The position numbers and the translations under genes were made by a program. Shown piece by piece: positions 42,062 through 58,083 of a stretch of 64,000 bases of DNA. The first letter of the stretch is position 1; every line of letters begins with the position of its first letter. Under the pieces are notes generated by a model. That model did not search any database. It worked only from the letters and a program-made list of their open reading frames with translations, and was not told where the DNA came from. Source of the stretch: a virus; IMG/VR virus record IMGVR_UViG_3300025769_000006, one strand, 5' to 3'.

Positions 42062-42318
42062 ACAACAACGACCACGTCTTGTGACTTTATAACGTGATAT
42101 ATATTTTTTTCAAACTCTATTTTATGACCAGCGTGTCTATCAAAAAATATTTCATCATTTTCTTTAACACCATCAACTTCATTTCCAACTGATATTACTA
42201 GTGCTCTTCTGTATCTTAAATCATTTTTTTGATTTTCAGAAAGAAGTAAACCACCTTTTGTTTCTGTAGTTCCTTCTTTTTTGACTAATATTATTAAGTT
42301 TCTACCTATTGCTTTCAT
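42058..42318 (-). CDS. groES: Co-chaperonin GroES/Hsp10 homologue
   Basis: RNLIILVKKEGTTETKGGLLL (mobile-loop region), RRALVISVGNEV and VKENDEIFFDRHAGHKI align with the GroES pattern. 86 aa. Confidence 0.8.
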   Translation of the reverse strand: MKAIGRNLIILVKKEGTTETKGGLLLSENQKNDLRYRRALVISVGNEVDGVKENDEIFFDRHAGHKIEFEKNIYHVIKSQDVVVVV

Positions 42319-43858
42319 TTATTCTAACGTTATTTATTACACAATTAGTAGAAAGTATAGTAGTTGCTACAGAAGCCGCATTTTTTAATGCACTTTTAGT
42401 AACTAATAGTGGATCTATAATTCCACTTTTAATCATATTAACCATTTTTCCTGTAACCACGTCGTAACCTTGACCCTTTTTATAAGGATAATCTAAGTTA
42501 TCAACACCTGCATTAGAAAGAATAGTTCTATAAGGTGCGGTTATAGCACTTAACAACAGTCGTTCGCCTAATGAATAAGCTTTAACTTTTTGAGAAGCGT
42601 TTAGAAGCGCAATACCACCACCTGGAACAATACCTTCTTTAACAGCGGCTTTTGTAGCACAGATAGCGTCTTCCACTCTATCCATTTTTTCTTTAAGTTC
42701 TATTTCAGAATTAGCTCCAACTTTTACTACAGATATCCTAGATGAAAGCATTGCTAATCTTTTTTCTAAACTTATTACTTGATCAGGTATTTTACAAGTT
42801 ATAAGCTTTTTTTCTATATCTTTGATTATCTCAGCACATTCATGGCTTTGCTCTTTAAACTGTAATATAGTATCTGTTTGGCTGGTTATAGACTTAAAAC
42901 ATGTACCTAGATGATCTATTTCTATTAAATCCATATCATCACCTAAATCTTCGTTTATTAACGTCGCTCCTGTTAGCAAAGAAAGATCATCAAACATTTG
43001 TTTTCTATTTACACCTAACACAGGTGCATCTATAACATTAACTTTTATATTTCCTTTTGTTTTATTCATTGCTAATGCTGATAAAACCTCAGGACTTAAA
43101 TCTGCTATTATTAAAAGTGATTTATTGTTTTTTATAACATATTCTAAAACACTTTGTATCTGTCTTATGTTTTCAACATTATTTTCTACTAATAAAACAA
43201 GAGGGTTGTTTAACTCTGCAGTCTTTTTAATTTTATTAGTAACAAAATGAGGACTTGTTAGACCTTTAAAATATTGAGAACCTTCTATTGTTTCTATTTC
43301 TGTTTTACCAGAATCAGATTGTTCCATTATAACTACACCTGTATTTTTTACATTTTCAAATGCTTTACCTATTAACTCTCCTAACTCTTTATCATTGTTT
43401 GTTGATATAGTAGCTATTTGTTTTATCATTTCATCTTTAACAGGTAAAGATATTTTATTTAAATAATCAACAACTCTATTAACAGATTTATTTATATCTT
43501 CTTTTAGCTCTCTTACACTAAGTTCTGATTTAACTTTATTTGCTTCATAAAGTATTGAGTGAGCTAAAACAGTAGCTGTGGTAGTGCCATCACCCGCTTC
43601 TTTAACAGTTTTTTTTGCGGCTTGTTTTAACAAGTTGCAACCTAAATTTTCTACCGGATCTATTAACACTACGCTTTCAGCAACTGTTACACCATCTTTT
43701 GTTATTGTTGGATTTCCATATTGATCTTCTAGCAAAACACAGCTACCACCAGCGCCGAGCGTTGAACTAACCGCGTTTGCTAACTTGTCAATACCATTAA
43801 AAACTTTATTCCTAGCATCGTCTCCAAAACTAAGATTTTTAACTATCTTGTCTGACAT
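42302..43858 (-). CDS. groEL: Chaperonin GroEL/Hsp60 homologue
   Basis: FGDDARNKVFNGIDKLANAVSSTLGAGG, ITKDGVTVAESV, AGDGTTTATVLAHSI and IVPGGGIALL. 518 aa, with no C-terminal GGM tail. Confidence 0.95.
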   Translation of the reverse strand: MSDKIVKNLSFGDDARNKVFNGIDKLANAVSSTLGAGGSCVLLEDQYGNPTITKDGVTVAESVVLIDPVENLGCNLLKQAAKKTVKEAGDGTTTATVLAHSILYEANKVKSELSVRELKEDINKSVNRVVDYLNKISLPVKDEMIKQIATISTNNDKELGELIGKAFENVKNTGVVIMEQSDSGKTEIETIEGSQYFKGLTSPHFVTNKIKKTAELNNPLVLLVENNVENIRQIQSVLEYVIKNNKSLLIIADLSPEVLSALAMNKTKGNIKVNVIDAPVLGVNRKQMFDDLSLLTGATLINEDLGDDMDLIEIDHLGTCFKSITSQTDTILQFKEQSHECAEIIKDIEKKLITCKIPDQVISLEKRLAMLSSRISVVKVGANSEIELKEKMDRVEDAICATKAAVKEGIVPGGGIALLNASQKVKAYSLGERLLLSAITAPYRTILSNAGVDNLDYPYKKGQGYDVVTGKMVNMIKSGIIDPLLVTKSALKNAASVATTILSTNCVINNVRINESNR

Positions 43859-54774: not shown

Positions 54775-54969
54775 ATGTATTGTAAATGTAAACCAAATAC
54801 TAAAATACCCGAAGCTCGAGTAGCTTTAGGTTATAAGACATGTGTTGATTGTTCTACTGCTGAGCAATATAGTTATGTACCAATAATCAACCATAAAACT
54901 GGCAATACTATTCAAATAGTAAGTCAATCACTCTCCGCCGCGGTGCATAGGTCGTGGCGGCGTAAATAG
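54775..54969 (+). CDS. C4 zinc-finger protein, TraR/DksA-like (tentative)
   Basis: CKC-x20-CVDC arrangement in a 64-aa protein (MYCKCKPNTKIPEARVALGYKTCVDCS). Confidence 0.4.
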   Translation: MYCKCKPNTKIPEARVALGYKTCVDCSTAEQYSYVPIINHKTGNTIQIVSQSLSAAVHRSWRRK

Positions 54970-55101
54970 ATAATCTAGAAGCTTAAGACATAGCTAGATA
55001 TCTACAGCTAGACGAGTAGCTTAATTAGGTGTGTATGTGGCGACGACTATCGACGGATATATGTGATCATACGGAAGTGTATTACACACACATAAGTGAA
55101 T

Positions 55102-55199
55102 AGCTAGCGGCAACTAGGTATGGATGCAACAGGAGTTATTAAATTAACCAGAGTTCATTACTACTGACGAGTATGAGGGTTCGATTCCCTCGCTAGTTA
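55102..55199 (+). ncRNA. tRNA-like element 1 (canonical T-arm plus acceptor-type helix; no canonical cloverleaf found by eye)
   Basis: T-arm GAGGG-TTCGATT-CCCTC (55175-55191). The 3' strand GCTAGTT (55192-55198) pairs with AGCTAGC (55102-55108; 7 pairs, one G:T) or AACTAGG (55112-55118; 6 of 7). Length 88-98 nt. Confidence 0.45.
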
Positions 55200-55289
55200 C
55201 AAAGCAGCAGGCCGGTATGCTGCTCCCTTACAGGAAACATGTGCTATAAAGCACCAAGCCTTTTAGGTTGAAAACAAGTAAGGGAATAT

Positions 55290-55396
55290 GGGCGTGAAAT
55301 GGTTAGACTACAAAATAGGTGGGCGAATGCCGTAAAGATACCGCGAGGAGCGGTACCTAAATTGTAGTAACGCAGGTTCGATTCCTGCCACGTCCA
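55290..55396 (+). ncRNA. tRNA-like element 2 with G3:U70 and A73 (alanine/tmRNA-type acceptor)
   Basis: GGGCGTG (55290-55296) pairs with CACGTCC (55389-55395) with a G:T at the third pair, and the discriminator is A. T-arm GCAGG-TTCGATT-CCTGC (55372-55388). GGTTAGAC is a D-loop-like segment. There is a 7-bp helix ACTACAA/TTGTAGT (55307-13/55362-68) and an internal hairpin TACCGC-GAGGA-GCGGTA. At 107 nt it is too long for a normal tRNA. Confidence 0.45.
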
Positions 55397-55416
55397 CTAA
55401 TTTTAAATAAACAACT

Positions 55417-55578
55417 ATGAAATACCTTTATGAACAACTAGACGAATTGTTAAACACTATTAAGTATGCAGAAGCATCGGGAAATGAAGACGCAGATTAC
55501 TTAAAAAACGATTACTTTATAGACGTTTTAGAAGCATGTAGAGAAATTGTAGAATACACATCAGAAGAAAAAGAATAA
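55417..55578 (+). CDS. Small acidic protein (53 aa)
   Basis: Hand translation gives MKYLYEQLDELLNTIKYAEASGNEDADYLKNDYFIDVLEACREIVEYTSEEKE. Confidence 0.4.
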   Translation: MKYLYEQLDELLNTIKYAEASGNEDADYLKNDYFIDVLEACREIVEYTSEEKE

Positions 55579-57531: not shown

Positions 57532-58083
57532 ATGGTCAATGGGTTTATTATGACAGACAATAGCACACTAAACAAATTGTTTAAAGAACATATAGAAGAT
57601 ATAAACAAGTTTATATATTCTAAAGTAAAAGATATACATTTAACTAAAGATCTATCTCAAGAAACTTTAATAAAACTTACAAAAGCTTTACGTAAAAAAA
57701 ACTATGAAGATCAGGGTAAATTTAAATCTTTTGCATTATGTGTGGCTAATAATATTATAGTAGATTATTATAGAAAAAAGAAACGTAGACCTAAAATGAA
57801 AAGATCTGAAACTTATGATATATTTTCTAAAATAAAATATGAAGAATTAAATAAAGAAGAATATATTATAAAAGAACAGATGTTAAAAGAAGTTAAACAA
57901 CTGCTTAATAAAATACCTAAAAAACTTAGACAAGTATTAATATTAAGGTTTTATAGTAAAATGACTTTTAGGCAAATAGCTAAAGAAACAAACACAAAAA
58001 TTAATACTGTTCAAGGTAGATTTAGATACGGAATGGATAGACTAAAACAATTACACGGACTTAACGAGTTATTAAATAGATAA
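57532..58083 (+). CDS. RNA polymerase sigma factor, ECF-like (sigma-70 regions 2 and 4)
   Basis: Region 2-like LSQETLIKLTKAL...FKSFALCVANNIIVDYYRKKKRR. Region 4 HTH LPKKLRQVLILRFYSKMTFRQIAKETNTKINTVQGRFRYGMDRLK. Confidence 0.8.
   Translation: MVNGFIMTDNSTLNKLFKEHIEDINKFIYSKVKDIHLTKDLSQETLIKLTKALRKKNYEDQGKFKSFALCVANNIIVDYYRKKKRRPKMKRSETYDIFSKIKYEELNKEEYIIKEQMLKEVKQLLNKIPKKLRQVLILRFYSKMTFRQIAKETNTKINTVQGRFRYGMDRLKQLHGLNELLNR

Follow-up and report, generated by a model that had tools for sequence, protein, structure and literature searches.

A tmRNA-like RNA reduced to its tRNA-like domain within a structured-RNA array of an uncultured marine podophage

Gene context of the array

The window, a 64,000-nt stretch of DNA (IMG/VR record IMGVR_UViG_3300025769_000006), comes from an uncultured marine podophage that is kin to Flavobacterium and Cellulophaga phages (Flavobacteriia), and its positions 54970-55416 form a co-oriented array of small structured RNAs in a small-ORF region, probably the early region, of the phage genome. 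An earlier note on this DNA had described the stretch as free of ORFs, GC-rich and packed with helices, and all of this, together with every coordinate it gave, agreed with the sequence: the sole frame of at least 30 aa between 54969 and 55417 was a minus-strand TTG frame of 30 aa, the G+C content was 0.42-0.475 in the array vs ~0.27-0.33 in the flanks, and 481 nt were more stable than their own shuffles (z = -3.9), with the MFE fold recovering both tRNA-like modules that the note had noticed. The 11-mer GGTTCGATTCC occurred exactly twice in the 64 kb, both times within the array, and allowing one mismatch gave four matches compared to 0.22 expected (0 of 100 shuffles reached four).

Directly upstream on the plus strand lies a Cys-rich ORF of 64 aa (54775-54969; MYCKC...KTCVDCS...HKTGNTIQIVSQ...WRRK), for which 277 relatives with the RNA array directly downstream were found in IMG/VR, the array always following this gene. 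For this protein, 111 clusters, all environmental, carried neither a Pfam domain nor a name, and the family had no match in Pfam, PHROGs or PDB sequences, nor by AlphaFold2 with Foldseek. An identity as a TraR/DksA-type zinc finger was considered and dropped, as Pfam, PHROGs and a PDB profile search returned nothing and Foldseek with the AlphaFold2 model (pLDDT 76.8) was also blank. In most relatives the TAG stop codon of this ORF is the first triplet of module 0, the first unit of the array; the window carries in between a non-conserved spacer (54970-55005) that is absent in most relatives and to which no related locus aligned. The 10-nt palindrome TAGATATCTA reported by the earlier note is indeed present in this spacer (54995-55004), and nothing points to a function for it. 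On the other side, a plus-strand ORF of 53 aa without a family (55417-55578) starts 21 nt past the discriminator of module 2, the last unit, so the array is embedded in a string of same-strand genes. The GenBank phage collection contained no relative of the locus, of the surrounding 10 kb or of the Cys-rich ORF.

Module 0, module 1 and hairpin-X

Module 0 (55006-55108, plus strand) is a third conserved scaffold, which the earlier note had not recognized as a conserved unit. It is a long irregular hairpin without a T-arm, delimited by conserved blocks in related loci and by RNAalifold, with the layout AGCUAG-ACGAG-UAGCUUA-AUUAG-(variable arm 55029-55089)-ACA-UAAGU-GAAUA-GCUAGC. As many as 31 loci shared the 5' block and 16-19 the 3' block, compared to only four that matched the arm. 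In the RNAalifold analysis, for which the frames were spliced with an artificial GAAA tip, the outer helix covaried (AU/GC; UA/AU/GC), the base of the arm showed strong covariation, and the inner helix GCUUA/UAAGU was conserved, with a G:U pair changed to G-C in two sequences and one mismatch.

Module 1 (55112-55199, plus strand) is an 88-nt non-canonical tRNA-like RNA, supported by covariation among 20 distinct homologues of 54-106 nt that have a common frame and differing arms. Its acceptor stem is AACUAG/CUAGUU with G7 unpaired and U8 present, and it is followed by a stemless D-region with GG, a variable arm (55124-55158), a mini-hairpin UACU-GACG-AGUA (55162-55173), and the first of the two perfect T-arms of the earlier note, which we located as written, GAGGG-TTCGATT-CCCTC at 55175-55191, or (U)GAGGG-UUCGAUU-CCCUC(G) at 55174-55192 in the RNA. 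The discriminator A at 55199 precedes a CAA trailer; G3:U70 is absent, position 3:70 being C:G. Pairs 3-5 of the T-stem covaried (GC/AU, AU/GC/GU and GC/UA/AU), as did pairs of the mini-hairpin (UA/CG/UG and CG/AU), with the counts anchored on the loops because MAFFT gap placement broke the register of the T-stem. Neither ARAGORN nor the Rfam tRNA model called module 1; only its T-arm matched, at 14.5 bits. A hammerhead ribozyme, prompted by CUGACGAG, was rejected: relatives have CCGACGG at this place without a GAAA partner, so the region is the covarying mini-hairpin with its GACG loop. A further non-canonical tRNA-like family was seen ~2 kb upstream in relatives.

Both the T4 species 1/2 RNAs and the YrlA/Y RNAs are small and stable, have tRNA-like ends and lie beside tRNA genes of phages or bacteria. 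Module 1 differs from them in having its own frame, marked by the AACUAG acceptor and the GACG mini-hairpin. A YrlA/Y-type identity, one of those suggested by the earlier note, was abandoned, as 54850-55500 gave no such Rfam match at E values up to 10; as regards linkage to an rsr (Ro60) gene, the neighbouring ORFs scanned gave no TROVE-domain match. GOLLD and ROOL, large ornate RNAs that accompany tRNAs in phages, were likewise rejected, as their Rfam models had no hits in the window at gathering thresholds and 11 related loci gave none at E ≤ 0.01.

Between modules 1 and 2, the 6-bp hairpin AGCAGC...GCUGCU (55203-55224) and the element closed by the 7-bp helix CCCTTAC/GTAAGGG (55225-55231/55278-55284; closed element 55225-55284) are both present as the earlier note had drawn them. 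What it had not seen is that they form one conserved unit, hairpin-X (55203-55284, plus strand), found in at least 11 loci, always 5 nt upstream of the tmRNA-like module, and maintained through compensatory changes (CCCUUAC/GUAAGGG vs CCCUCAC/GUGAGGG; AGCAGC/GCUGCU vs GGCGGC/GCCGCC). Hairpin-X had no Rfam match in the window or in related loci.

Module 2 as a TLD-only tmRNA and its relatives

Module 2, which resembles tmRNA, combines an acceptor stem and a T-arm with a stemless D-loop containing GG and a single long arm. Encoded on the plus strand, it spans 107 nt (55290-55396), the length already deduced in the earlier note, which had also read the acceptor stem, with its alanine/tmRNA identity set, correctly: the 5' strand GGGCGUG (55290-55296) forms 7 bp with CACGUCC (55389-55395; GGGCGTG/CACGTCC in the DNA), including G3:U70 (G3:T70), and the discriminator at 55396 is an A (A73). 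The 3' segment (55389-55399) ends in a CUA trailer, so that CCA is not encoded; one relative does encode CCA (L110, copy 1), and in the arrays of relatives a CUA(A) trailer is also found behind genuine tRNA-Met genes. The D-loop analogue AAAUGGUUAG (55297-55306), conserved as a block in 25-27 loci, aligned under RF00023 to tmRNA AucuGGaUUCG, which places the GG segment at the tmRNA-type position as had been proposed. The second T-arm, GCAGG-UUCGAUU-CCUGC (GCAGG-TTCGATT-CCTGC in the DNA; 55372-55388), was likewise confirmed and covaries among 54 distinct homologues. Between the two lies a long variable arm (55307-55368, from the MFE fold), which occupies the position of tmRNA helix P2 and is closed by the expected 7-bp helix ACUACAA/UUGUAGU (55307-55313/55362-55368; ACTACAA/TTGTAGT in the DNA); this encloses UAGGU/ACCUA and the hairpins GGC-GAAU-GCC and ACCGC-GAGGA-GCGGU.

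When 55290-55399 was compared with the tmRNA model RF00023, the alignment covered model positions 1-374, with 40 nt in place of 304 internal positions, and the score of 37.7 bits was the top one in the tRNA clan, above the tRNA model and below the gathering threshold of 47. Four relatives' copies, all of ~80 nt, exceeded that threshold (L062, 64.7 bits; L030, 60.8 bits; L093, 59.0 bits; L076, 53.1 bits), and these four keep the tmRNA-type irregular GAC/GGA helix base. The window has GAC...GUA at the base of the arm (G.A, then A-U, then C-G) vs the canonical GAC...GGA in the GGGGGUG subfamily of relatives. In tmRNA, the base of helix 2a, GAC/GGAC with tandem G.A/A.G pairs, is presumably the SmpB-binding site. 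The pseudoknot ring (PK1-PK4) is absent from module 2, whose arm consists of nested hairpins and leaves no room for it, and so is the mRNA-like domain, there being no conserved resume codon, tag frame or in-frame stop. Module 2 is thus TLD-only, with a tmRNA-type tRNA-like domain (TLD), a short closing helix, and the mRNA-like domain and pseudoknots gone. Among the four identities listed in the earlier note, the miniature tmRNA-like RNA was the correct one, as RF00023 aligns end to end and relatives pass its threshold.

The non-canonical nature of both tRNA-like modules held up against standard tools: ARAGORN in default mode, with or without introns allowed, called no genes in the window, Rfam gave nothing there at gathering thresholds, blastn with module 2 returned generic T-arm similarity to tRNAs and nothing more, and default ARAGORN called only one of 49 TLDs in the family. 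We consider it highly improbable that the modules are unusual tRNAs that decode despite introns or enlarged arms, or that part of a host gene for tRNA or ssrA is carried here as a phage attachment site. ARAGORN at 80% thresholds with introns did label module 1 a tRNA-Ser and module 2 a tRNA-Arg, but its relaxed calls scattered over 31 different "anticodons" across the family, which argues against ordinary or intron-containing tRNAs. Unrelated tRNA-Val genes of three MAGs carry at the 3' end the same 26-mer as module 2, but these have A3:U70 and a normal cloverleaf, and the 26-mer occurred in no isolate among 185,579 species representatives, its other matches being phage-like MAG contigs. Moreover, module 2 has both strands of its acceptor stem, and the ORFs that were scanned included no integrase.

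Compensatory changes maintain the module 2 fold. In the 54 distinct copies, every one of the 648 cells of the acceptor stem and T-arm was a standard pair, compared to 44-55% paired in slid controls; double-sided changes were seen at seven of 12 pairs (47 cells), including four of the five T-stem pairs, giving the covariation in relatives that the earlier note had made a test of its helices. In four of five whole-structure measures, none of 500 column shuffles reached the observed value; the fifth, a count of further pair types, was reached by 35 of 500. The G3:U70 pair was present in 52 of the 54, while the adjoining 4:69 was C-G, G-C or A-U, and in the two G3:C70 copies pair 1:72 and the discriminator were altered too. 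Part of the invariance of the scaffold may reflect recent common ancestry, not selection, because it is so conserved overall. A covariance model built from 24 copies retrieved 63 copies at 39.5-78.8 bits (next best ≤ 34 bits), and unconstrained folding of 49 unique sequences gave the acceptor, T-arm and central arm in 47, and a single closing arm in 39 vs 18% of arm-shuffled controls.

The TLD was present in 56 of 69 loci with enough downstream sequence, and the order of units was always module 0, module 1, TLD, tRNA. This fixed order on the coding strand, together with the fact that module 0 mostly begins, in relatives, with the stop codon of the ORF before it, and the 21 nt between the TLD and the next ORF, would suit tRNA-type punctuation, in which the modules let RNase P and RNase Z cut a polycistron and cap the 3' end of the mRNA of the Cys-rich ORF. 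A single hairpin or tRNA-like unit would suffice for that, however, the conserved G3:U70, A73 and tmRNA-type D-loop would not be required, and some relatives have two TLD copies, in tandem or 1.6-2 kb apart, all of which makes punctuation distinctly unlikely as the explanation of the array.

Reduction of tmRNA to its TLD has a phage precedent. The tmRNA of mycobacteriophage DS6A is described as "TLD only" (Mao et al. 2009, as taken up in passages of PMC4131195 and PMC11915505), and according to the same passages tmRNA in E. coli was strongly inhibited by a similar molecule, which perhaps titrates SmpB. The DS6A RNA carries no annotation in the public record; we located it at JN698994 28478-28560, where RF00023 scored 43.2 bits with 312 positions replaced by 20 nt. 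Both RNAs are phage-encoded, have G3:U70, A73 and CUA instead of CCA after the discriminator, lack a tag frame and pseudoknots, and align end to end to RF00023 with the middle deleted at scores below threshold. They differ in that DS6A is a temperate actinobacteriophage with a single reported 83-nt gene and a 20-nt insert, whereas the family here comprises 110 distinct sequences from uncultured marine podophages, has a hypervariable arm of 25-115 nt that is swapped between scaffolds, and lies within an array of structured modules and tRNAs. As judged from their alignment, which is confined to the generic TLD, the two reductions were probably independent. The tmRNAs of jakobid mitochondria and Mallomonadaceae plastids (Jacob et al. 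2004; PMC11915505) are likewise CDS-less and TLD-reduced, measuring ~65-100 nt and lacking a tag frame, and are presumed to act with SmpB, but they are vertically inherited, rely on a nucleus-encoded SmpB, and have neither a cassette arm nor an RNA array. Full-length tmRNAs, including those of mycobacteriophage Bxz1 and Melnitz-like phages (RF00023; PMC9004378), share with module 2 G3:U70, A73, the stemless GG D-loop, the T-arm and an irregular helix leaving the TLD; module 2 has no resume codon, tag ORF, stop, pseudoknots or encoded CCA, and is ~107 nt long vs ~360 nt.

Variable arms and the proposed role of the array

The interior helices behave as interchangeable cassettes, an observation that the earlier note did not make. 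The 110 unique TLDs had 102 different arms, which fell into no fewer than 65 unrelated families, on a nearly invariant frame of ~55 nt. The arm helices are kept through compensatory changes, the module 2 hairpin GGC/GCC, for instance, appearing as GGC/GCU and AGC/GCU in relatives. Five arm families were common to module-0 and TLD scaffolds, and arms were also nested within arms. The window's own module 2 arm matched only 2-6 loci; its core also occurs in the module-0 scaffold of loci L057 and L089, and locus L061 has the same module-2 arm together with other module-0 and module-1 arms, which indicates that arms reassort. No arm from the window or related loci matched an Rfam family, and a role as antisense to the phage's own genes was discarded, as only chance 10-12-mers were found. 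By eye, some cassettes looked like CRISPR repeats, SRP RNA or a glutamine riboswitch (GACGGAAGU); Rfam lent no support and we make no such claim.

The window's module 2 arm contains the frame ANAVKIPRGAVPKL that the earlier note had tentatively read as a tag ORF, and a working mini-tmRNA would accordingly add the tag (A)NAVKIPRGAVPKL, encoded at 55323-55364 and followed by two stop codons. The frame is kept in four near-identical arm variants, in which the single substitution within it is synonymous, but substitutions are equally compensatory in the hairpin (GGC/GCC, GGC/GCU and AGC/GCU). A GCN-to-stop frame of at least 4 aa was absent in 27 of 49 distinct homologues, and the others encode unrelated peptides, none with a hydrophobic, LAA-type C-terminal degron; the best tmRNA-scoring copies, of ~80 nt, have just 16 nt between the arm strands; the frame lies within stable helices with no upstream pseudoknot; and in L057 and L089 the same arm is found in a scaffold, module 0, that is not tRNA-like. 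Taken together, the tag-ORF reading did not survive, and a tag-adding mini-tmRNA is scarcely credible.

We favour, with moderate confidence, the view that the last and most conserved member of the array is a TLD-only tmRNA homologue that blocks or hijacks host ribosome rescue, interference with or hijack of host rescue being the most likely function of module 2. In the proposed mechanism, the array would be co-transcribed with its flanking genes and the tRNA-like units would be freed by RNase P, cutting at the 5' end, and by an endo- or exonuclease on the 3' side, past the discriminator. A host enzyme would then add CCA, as needed also for the true tRNA genes with a CUA trailer. Through G3:U70 and A73, module 2 could be charged by the host alanyl-tRNA synthetase (AlaRS), and its TLD would bind host SmpB; a phage-encoded SmpB was not found in the window by tblastn with E. 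coli SmpB as query, a weak test. Lacking a resume or stop codon, the RNA would leave trans-translation incomplete. It might sequester SmpB, possibly along with stalled ribosomes, and thereby block tagging and rescue by the host during infection, or it might take over the nascent chain and leave it without a degradation tag. Titration of SmpB alone leaves the conserved G3:U70 unexplained, because it needs no chargeable RNA. The variable arm would stand at the P2 position with its sequence unneeded, and the rescue mechanism does not explain the wholesale replacement of arms, which extends to other scaffolds, nor what modules 0 and 1 and hairpin-X do, which falls outside it. The sub-threshold Rfam score of the window's own copy, the non-canonical pairs at the base of its arm and the lack of an encoded CCA also weigh against this view.

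Arm replacement is the strength of a second, tentative and rather doubtful reading, natural RNA-scaffold display, in which the TLD, module 1 and module 0 frames would provide processing and stability and the arms would be the functional cargo. An equally tentative wording of it makes the locus an "RNA cassette display" whose scaffolds would secure processing and stability and might also deliver their load to SmpB or the ribosome, and whose dozens of unrelated hairpins, shuffled among scaffolds and nested in one another, would form a fast-evolving small-RNA repertoire, for example of protein-binding decoys against host factors or anti-defence RNAs. The diversity of the arms on their constant frame, their sharing between scaffolds, their nesting, their compensated helices and their independent reassortment all speak for display. 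Engineered tRNA scaffolds (PMC3753655) offer a parallel, in that a foreign structured RNA takes the place of the anticodon arm and the tRNA-like frame sees to processing and stability; these are artificial, however, and the natural arms here are putative cargo at most. Against display, the arms have no Rfam family, only chance matches to the phage genome and no known target, frequent recombination of neighbouring hairpins could shuffle neutral "stuffer" helices, and the retention of the tmRNA-type identity set would be unexplained.

It is unlikely that the modules act instead as decoys that shield host and phage tRNAs by drawing off nucleases aimed at anticodons or acceptors, or defence proteins that have SmpB-like domains. 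The presence of several non-canonical tRNA-like families (module 1, the TLD and the one ~2 kb upstream in relatives) and the prediction of defence systems with SmpB-like OB folds (CoCoNuTs, PMC10542128) would fit such a role, but modules without anticodon loops are poor bait for anticodon nucleases, no defence system is linked to the modules, and the idea is wholly indirect.

Returning to the tmRNA homologue that we favour, what is new here is a large TLD-only family in uncultured marine phages, the swapping of arms between scaffolds, and three further conserved modules. TLD-only tmRNAs, previously represented by one mycobacteriophage gene and a few organelles, are therefore a family and no oddity. 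Such RNAs are probably under-counted in viromes, given that ARAGORN is blank and that the window and DS6A copies fall below the Rfam threshold. The more than 100 sequence variants constitute a natural mutagenesis set that defines the minimal tRNA-like domain of tmRNA, and the almost complete retention of G3:U70 speaks for a role of charging, something not predicted if the RNA were purely an "SmpB sponge". The cassette arms and the three extra unclassified scaffolds hint at a modular RNA system previously undescribed. Collectively, such a conserved and strongly constrained reduction in a large phage lineage suggests that tampering with trans-translation, or exploitation of SmpB and AlaRS, is a recurrent phage strategy.

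A structured RNA locus in a phage genome segment

The window is a segment of a phage genome, with genes for a portal protein, large terminase, virion proteins and a GroEL-like chaperonin (phrog_5725, 42302-43858) on the minus strand, and genes for thymidylate synthase, MazG, ribonucleotide reductase, a PDDEXK protein and a sigma-70/ECF-like sigma factor (Pfam Sigma70_r2 and r4, 57532-58083) on the plus strand. The terminase shares 63% identity with its counterpart in an uncultured Caudoviricetes genome and about 45% with the terminases of Flavobacterium 'elemo' and Cellulophaga phages, which suggests that the host is probably a member of the Flavobacteriia. The RNA locus sits within a series of small plus-strand ORFs, directly downstream of a 64-aa Cys-rich ORF (54775-54969) with 277 relatives in IMG/VR. 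This family comprises 111 protein clusters, every one environmental, its linkage to the RNA array was invariable, and searches of Pfam, PHROGs and PDB, with sequence or with the predicted fold, found no relative.

On re-reading the window, all coordinates given for the locus in the earlier note were correct, as was its description of an ORF-free, GC-rich and helix-packed region: the sole ORF within 54969-55417 was a 30-aa minus-strand TTG frame, the G+C content was 0.42-0.475 compared to approximately 0.27-0.33 around it, and a 481-nt stretch folded at z = -3.9, with both acceptor/T-arm modules present in the MFE structure. Within the 64 kb there are exactly two occurrences of the 11-mer GGTTCGATTCC, both in the locus; with one mismatch allowed, four matches were observed against 0.22 expected, a number reached in none of 100 shuffles. 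ARAGORN called neither a tRNA nor a tmRNA anywhere in the window, a result unchanged when introns were permitted at default stringency, and Rfam gave no match in the window at gathering thresholds; standard tools therefore do not resolve the two modules as ordinary tRNAs.

Module 2 and the tRNA-like domain of tmRNA

In a permissive Rfam scan of 54850-55500, the top match was tmRNA (RF00023) at 55290-55399, which scored 37.7 bits where the gathering score is 47. The alignment to module 2 (55290-55396) extends from model position 1 to 374, with 304 internal positions replaced by 40 nt, and covers the acceptor stem, a stemless D-loop analogue (GAAAUGGUUA-GAC vs GAucuGGaUUCGAC in the tmRNA model), the base of helix 2 and the T-arm. 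As only these portions align, module 2 is the tRNA-like domain (TLD) of a tmRNA lacking the messenger part. Homologous modules in several related loci, in RNAs of only about 80 nt, exceeded the Rfam tmRNA threshold (64.7, 60.8, 59.0 and 53.1 bits), in agreement with the miniature tmRNA-like identity, one of several considered in the earlier note; this subfamily (GGGGGUGAuaUGGUUUUGAC...GGAAGACAG...) has retained GAC/GGA, the canonical helix base, with only 16 nt separating the arm strands.

Nothing similar to the locus was found in the GenBank phage collection. A pattern scan of IMG/VR recovered near-identical copies of module 2, together with one copy that had the same ends, a wholly different interior and a compensatorily replaced closing helix. 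We then fetched 80 loci out of the 277 relatives of the Cys-rich ORF, nearly all of which carried between one and three T-loops no more than a few hundred nucleotides downstream of this ORF, and scanning IMG/VR a second time with the 3' block as query yielded 88 further stretches. The TLD was found in 56 of the 69 loci with sufficient downstream sequence.

A covariance model built from 24 copies and containing only the acceptor and T-arm pairs matched 63 copies in the window and 81 loci, with scores of 39.5-78.8 bits. The next-best matches, separated by a clear gap (≤34 bits), included flanking tRNA-Met genes, module 1 and other tRNA-like elements, module 1 of the window scoring 18.8 bits. Across 54 distinct sequences, all 648 pair cells of the acceptor and T-arm were standard pairs, and double-sided changes were observed in 7 of the 12 pairs (47 cells). 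When columns were shuffled 500 times, no shuffle reached the observed value for four of the five whole-structure measures, and 35 did so for the fifth, the count of further pair types; sliding the 3' partners as a control reduced pairing to 44-55%. Unconstrained folding returned the acceptor, T-arm and central arm in 47 of 49 unique sequences, and a single arm bridging the D-loop and the T-arm in 39 of 49, compared to 18% of arm-shuffled controls.

The G3:U70 wobble was kept in 52 of the 54 distinct sequences, with the adjoining 4:69 pair being C-G, G-C or A-U. Both exceptions are second copies, in L068 and L072, in which positions 1:72, 3:70 and the discriminator change together. These TLD-like copies lie 1.6-2 kb downstream (L068 4932-5025, L072 5147-5243) and carry A1:U72, G3:C70 and a U discriminator; on the same scaffold, the joint switch looks like a change of predicted identity.

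The earlier note had tentatively proposed a peptide tag, ANAVKIPRGAVPKL, within the arm of module 2. We listed, for 49 unique sequences, all GCN-initiated frames reaching a stop. Frames of at least 4 aa were absent in 27 of the 49, the remainder encoded unrelated peptides, and no frame ended in an LAA-like degron. The ANAVKIPRGAVPKL frame was kept solely in four near-identical arm variants, whose substitutions can equally well be read as compensatory in a hairpin (GGC/GCC, GGC/GCU, AGC/GCU), and the same arm core also occurs as the module-0 arm of L057 and L089, on a scaffold that is not tRNA-like. The tag reading was hence rejected. Relaxed ARAGORN gave 31 different anticodons across the family, which rules out a decoding tRNA, and the YrlA-type identity was dismissed together with GOLLD and ROOL, as none had an Rfam match. 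The possibility of a host-gene fragment or attP was likewise rejected, since the 3' 26-mer of the TLD was present in no isolate genome among GTDB species representatives. Its occurrences were confined to phage-like MAG contigs and three tRNA-Val genes with a normal cloverleaf and A3:U70 (pair read in L101). These genes, which share the identical 26-nt block of T-arm and acceptor 3' strand, are located at L101 2649-2723, L107 7455-7529 and L108 3657-3732 in actinobacterial and planctomycete MAGs. The ORFs scanned included no integrase.

A modular array with exchangeable arms

The order of the array was constant across loci: module 0, module 1 and the TLD, often followed by a true tRNA-Met or tRNA-Gln. 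Module 0 (55006-55108), a third conserved RNA scaffold that the earlier note had overlooked, begins, in most relatives, with the stop codon of the Cys-rich ORF and forms a long hairpin: the outer helix covaries, two internal loops (ACGAGUA/GAAUw and AUUAG/ACA) are conserved, and the tip is hypervariable. Module 1 (55112-55199) consists of a 6-bp acceptor (AACUAG/CUAGUU), U8, GG, a variable arm, a mini-hairpin (UACy-GACG-rGUA) in the place of the long variable arm of class II tRNAs, a 5-6-bp T-stem and A73. This frame is common to 20 distinct homologues with unrelated arms, in which the T-stem and mini-hairpin covary; as module 1 has C3:G70, alanine identity cannot be inferred. Hairpin-X (55203-55284) unites the hairpin at 55203-55224 and the CCCUUAC...GUAAGGG element, shows compensatory changes in at least 11 loci, matched no known family and is always positioned 5 nt upstream of the TLD (loci including L022, L035, L042, L055, L058, L076, L084 and L152). 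Other recurrent free-standing cassettes occupy this position, between the Cys-rich ORF and the TLD, in L005/L061, L008, L018, L021, L022, L055, L090 and L097; examples are GUAUAAGUCAGGGyAyA..GUAAAUGACGUGCAUC and CACGrG..GCAGAGUAAUUwACUG..GCACGGUGGAAGUCCGAU, and these cassettes had no Rfam match at an E-value of 0.01 or better.

In both true tRNAs and tRNA-like units of L020-L099, the trailer after the discriminator is nearly always CUA(A/U) or CAA, not CCA, and may be a shared 3'-processing signal. True tRNA-Met genes in the arrays likewise do not encode CCA and have CUA(A) next; a CCA-less gene is therefore normal here, which implies 3' processing and CCA addition. Further groups of tRNA-like genes were observed. 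One, a non-canonical family that relatives carry roughly 2 kb upstream of the Cys-rich ORF (L072 1269-1341, L093 636-711, L046 672-739, L061 1200-1277), is characterised by AGUCAC.. or AGACAUA.. as acceptor, GUGAG as T-stem and A-CUA as trailer; it was not called by ARAGORN and has no counterpart in the window. Another, long genes in unrelated IMG/VR contigs (L003, L006, L010, L011, L016), combines an AGUCAGG acceptor with a D-arm of normal appearance (GGCGGAAUUGGUUAGACGC), carries 40-60 extra nucleotides ahead of the T-arm, and may represent class II or intron-bearing tRNAs of other phages.

Alignment of the window to related loci showed conserved frames alternating with variable arms. The pooled set contained 110 unique TLDs (67-168 nt) with 102 unique arms, falling in at least 65 families unrelated at the BLAST level. 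Five arm families occurred in both module-0 and TLD scaffolds, the window's module-0 arm being the TLD arm of L081, and arms were also nested within arms. A sub-scaffold, GACCGAGACGUGGUAA...[variable]...AACCGAGUCAUGG, a quasi-symmetric helix with conserved single-base bulges, recurs in otherwise unrelated TLD arms (e.g., L028 5580-5693). The arms showed no significant match to the rest of the phage genome and matched no Rfam family.

Known TLD-only tmRNAs and a possible function

Complete tmRNAs are carried by about 2% of phage genomes (PMC9004378), and tmRNAs without a CDS occur in mitochondria, including those of jakobids (Jacob et al. 2004, cited in PMC11915505), and in two plastids (PMC11915505). 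PMC4131195 and PMC11915505 describe a 'TLD only' tmRNA in mycobacteriophage DS6A, and a similar molecule reported to strongly inhibit tmRNA in E. coli, possibly through SmpB titration (citing Mao et al. 2009). We located the DS6A RNA, unannotated in the GenBank record, at JN698994 28478-28560, between gp33 and gp34 (DNA polymerase III). It gave the same kind of match to RF00023 as module 2 (43.2 bits, below threshold, with 312 positions replaced by 20 nt), and its end, ...CCA-CUA, has the CUA trailer in common with the window's RNA.

G3:U70 and A73 are determinants for AlaRS, SmpB binds the TLD of tmRNA, and tRNA-like ends are subject to RNase P, 3' processing and CCA addition. From its tRNA-like ends, module 2 would be released from a polycistronic transcript and CCA-tailed, after which G3:U70 and A73 predict alanylation and the TLD would be bound by host SmpB; no phage SmpB was found in the window by tblastn with E. 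coli SmpB, a weak test. Since it has neither a resume codon nor a stop, module 2 might titrate SmpB and block stalled ribosomes, thereby inhibiting host trans-translation like the similar molecule, or might accept nascent chains without adding a tag. The near-invariant G3:U70 wobble appears to favour a role that needs charging, i.e., ribosome entry, an argument weakened by the high overall conservation of the frame. This mechanism accounts neither for the wholesale turnover of arms nor for modules 0, 1 and hairpin-X, and we therefore keep, as a less likely alternative, the reading that the conserved frames are scaffolds and the arms their cargo.

The observation in the earlier note is thus borne out, and of its interpretation the tmRNA-like module 2 stands while the tag ORF falls. 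Module 2 has a conserved fold, tmRNA-type TLD features, no messenger part and a place in an array. Its function in trans-translation would follow by analogy with tmRNA. Collectively, module 2 is a new, widespread variant of the TLD-only tmRNA, a rare kind already known in phages from DS6A, and forms part of a modular array of structured RNAs that was previously undescribed.
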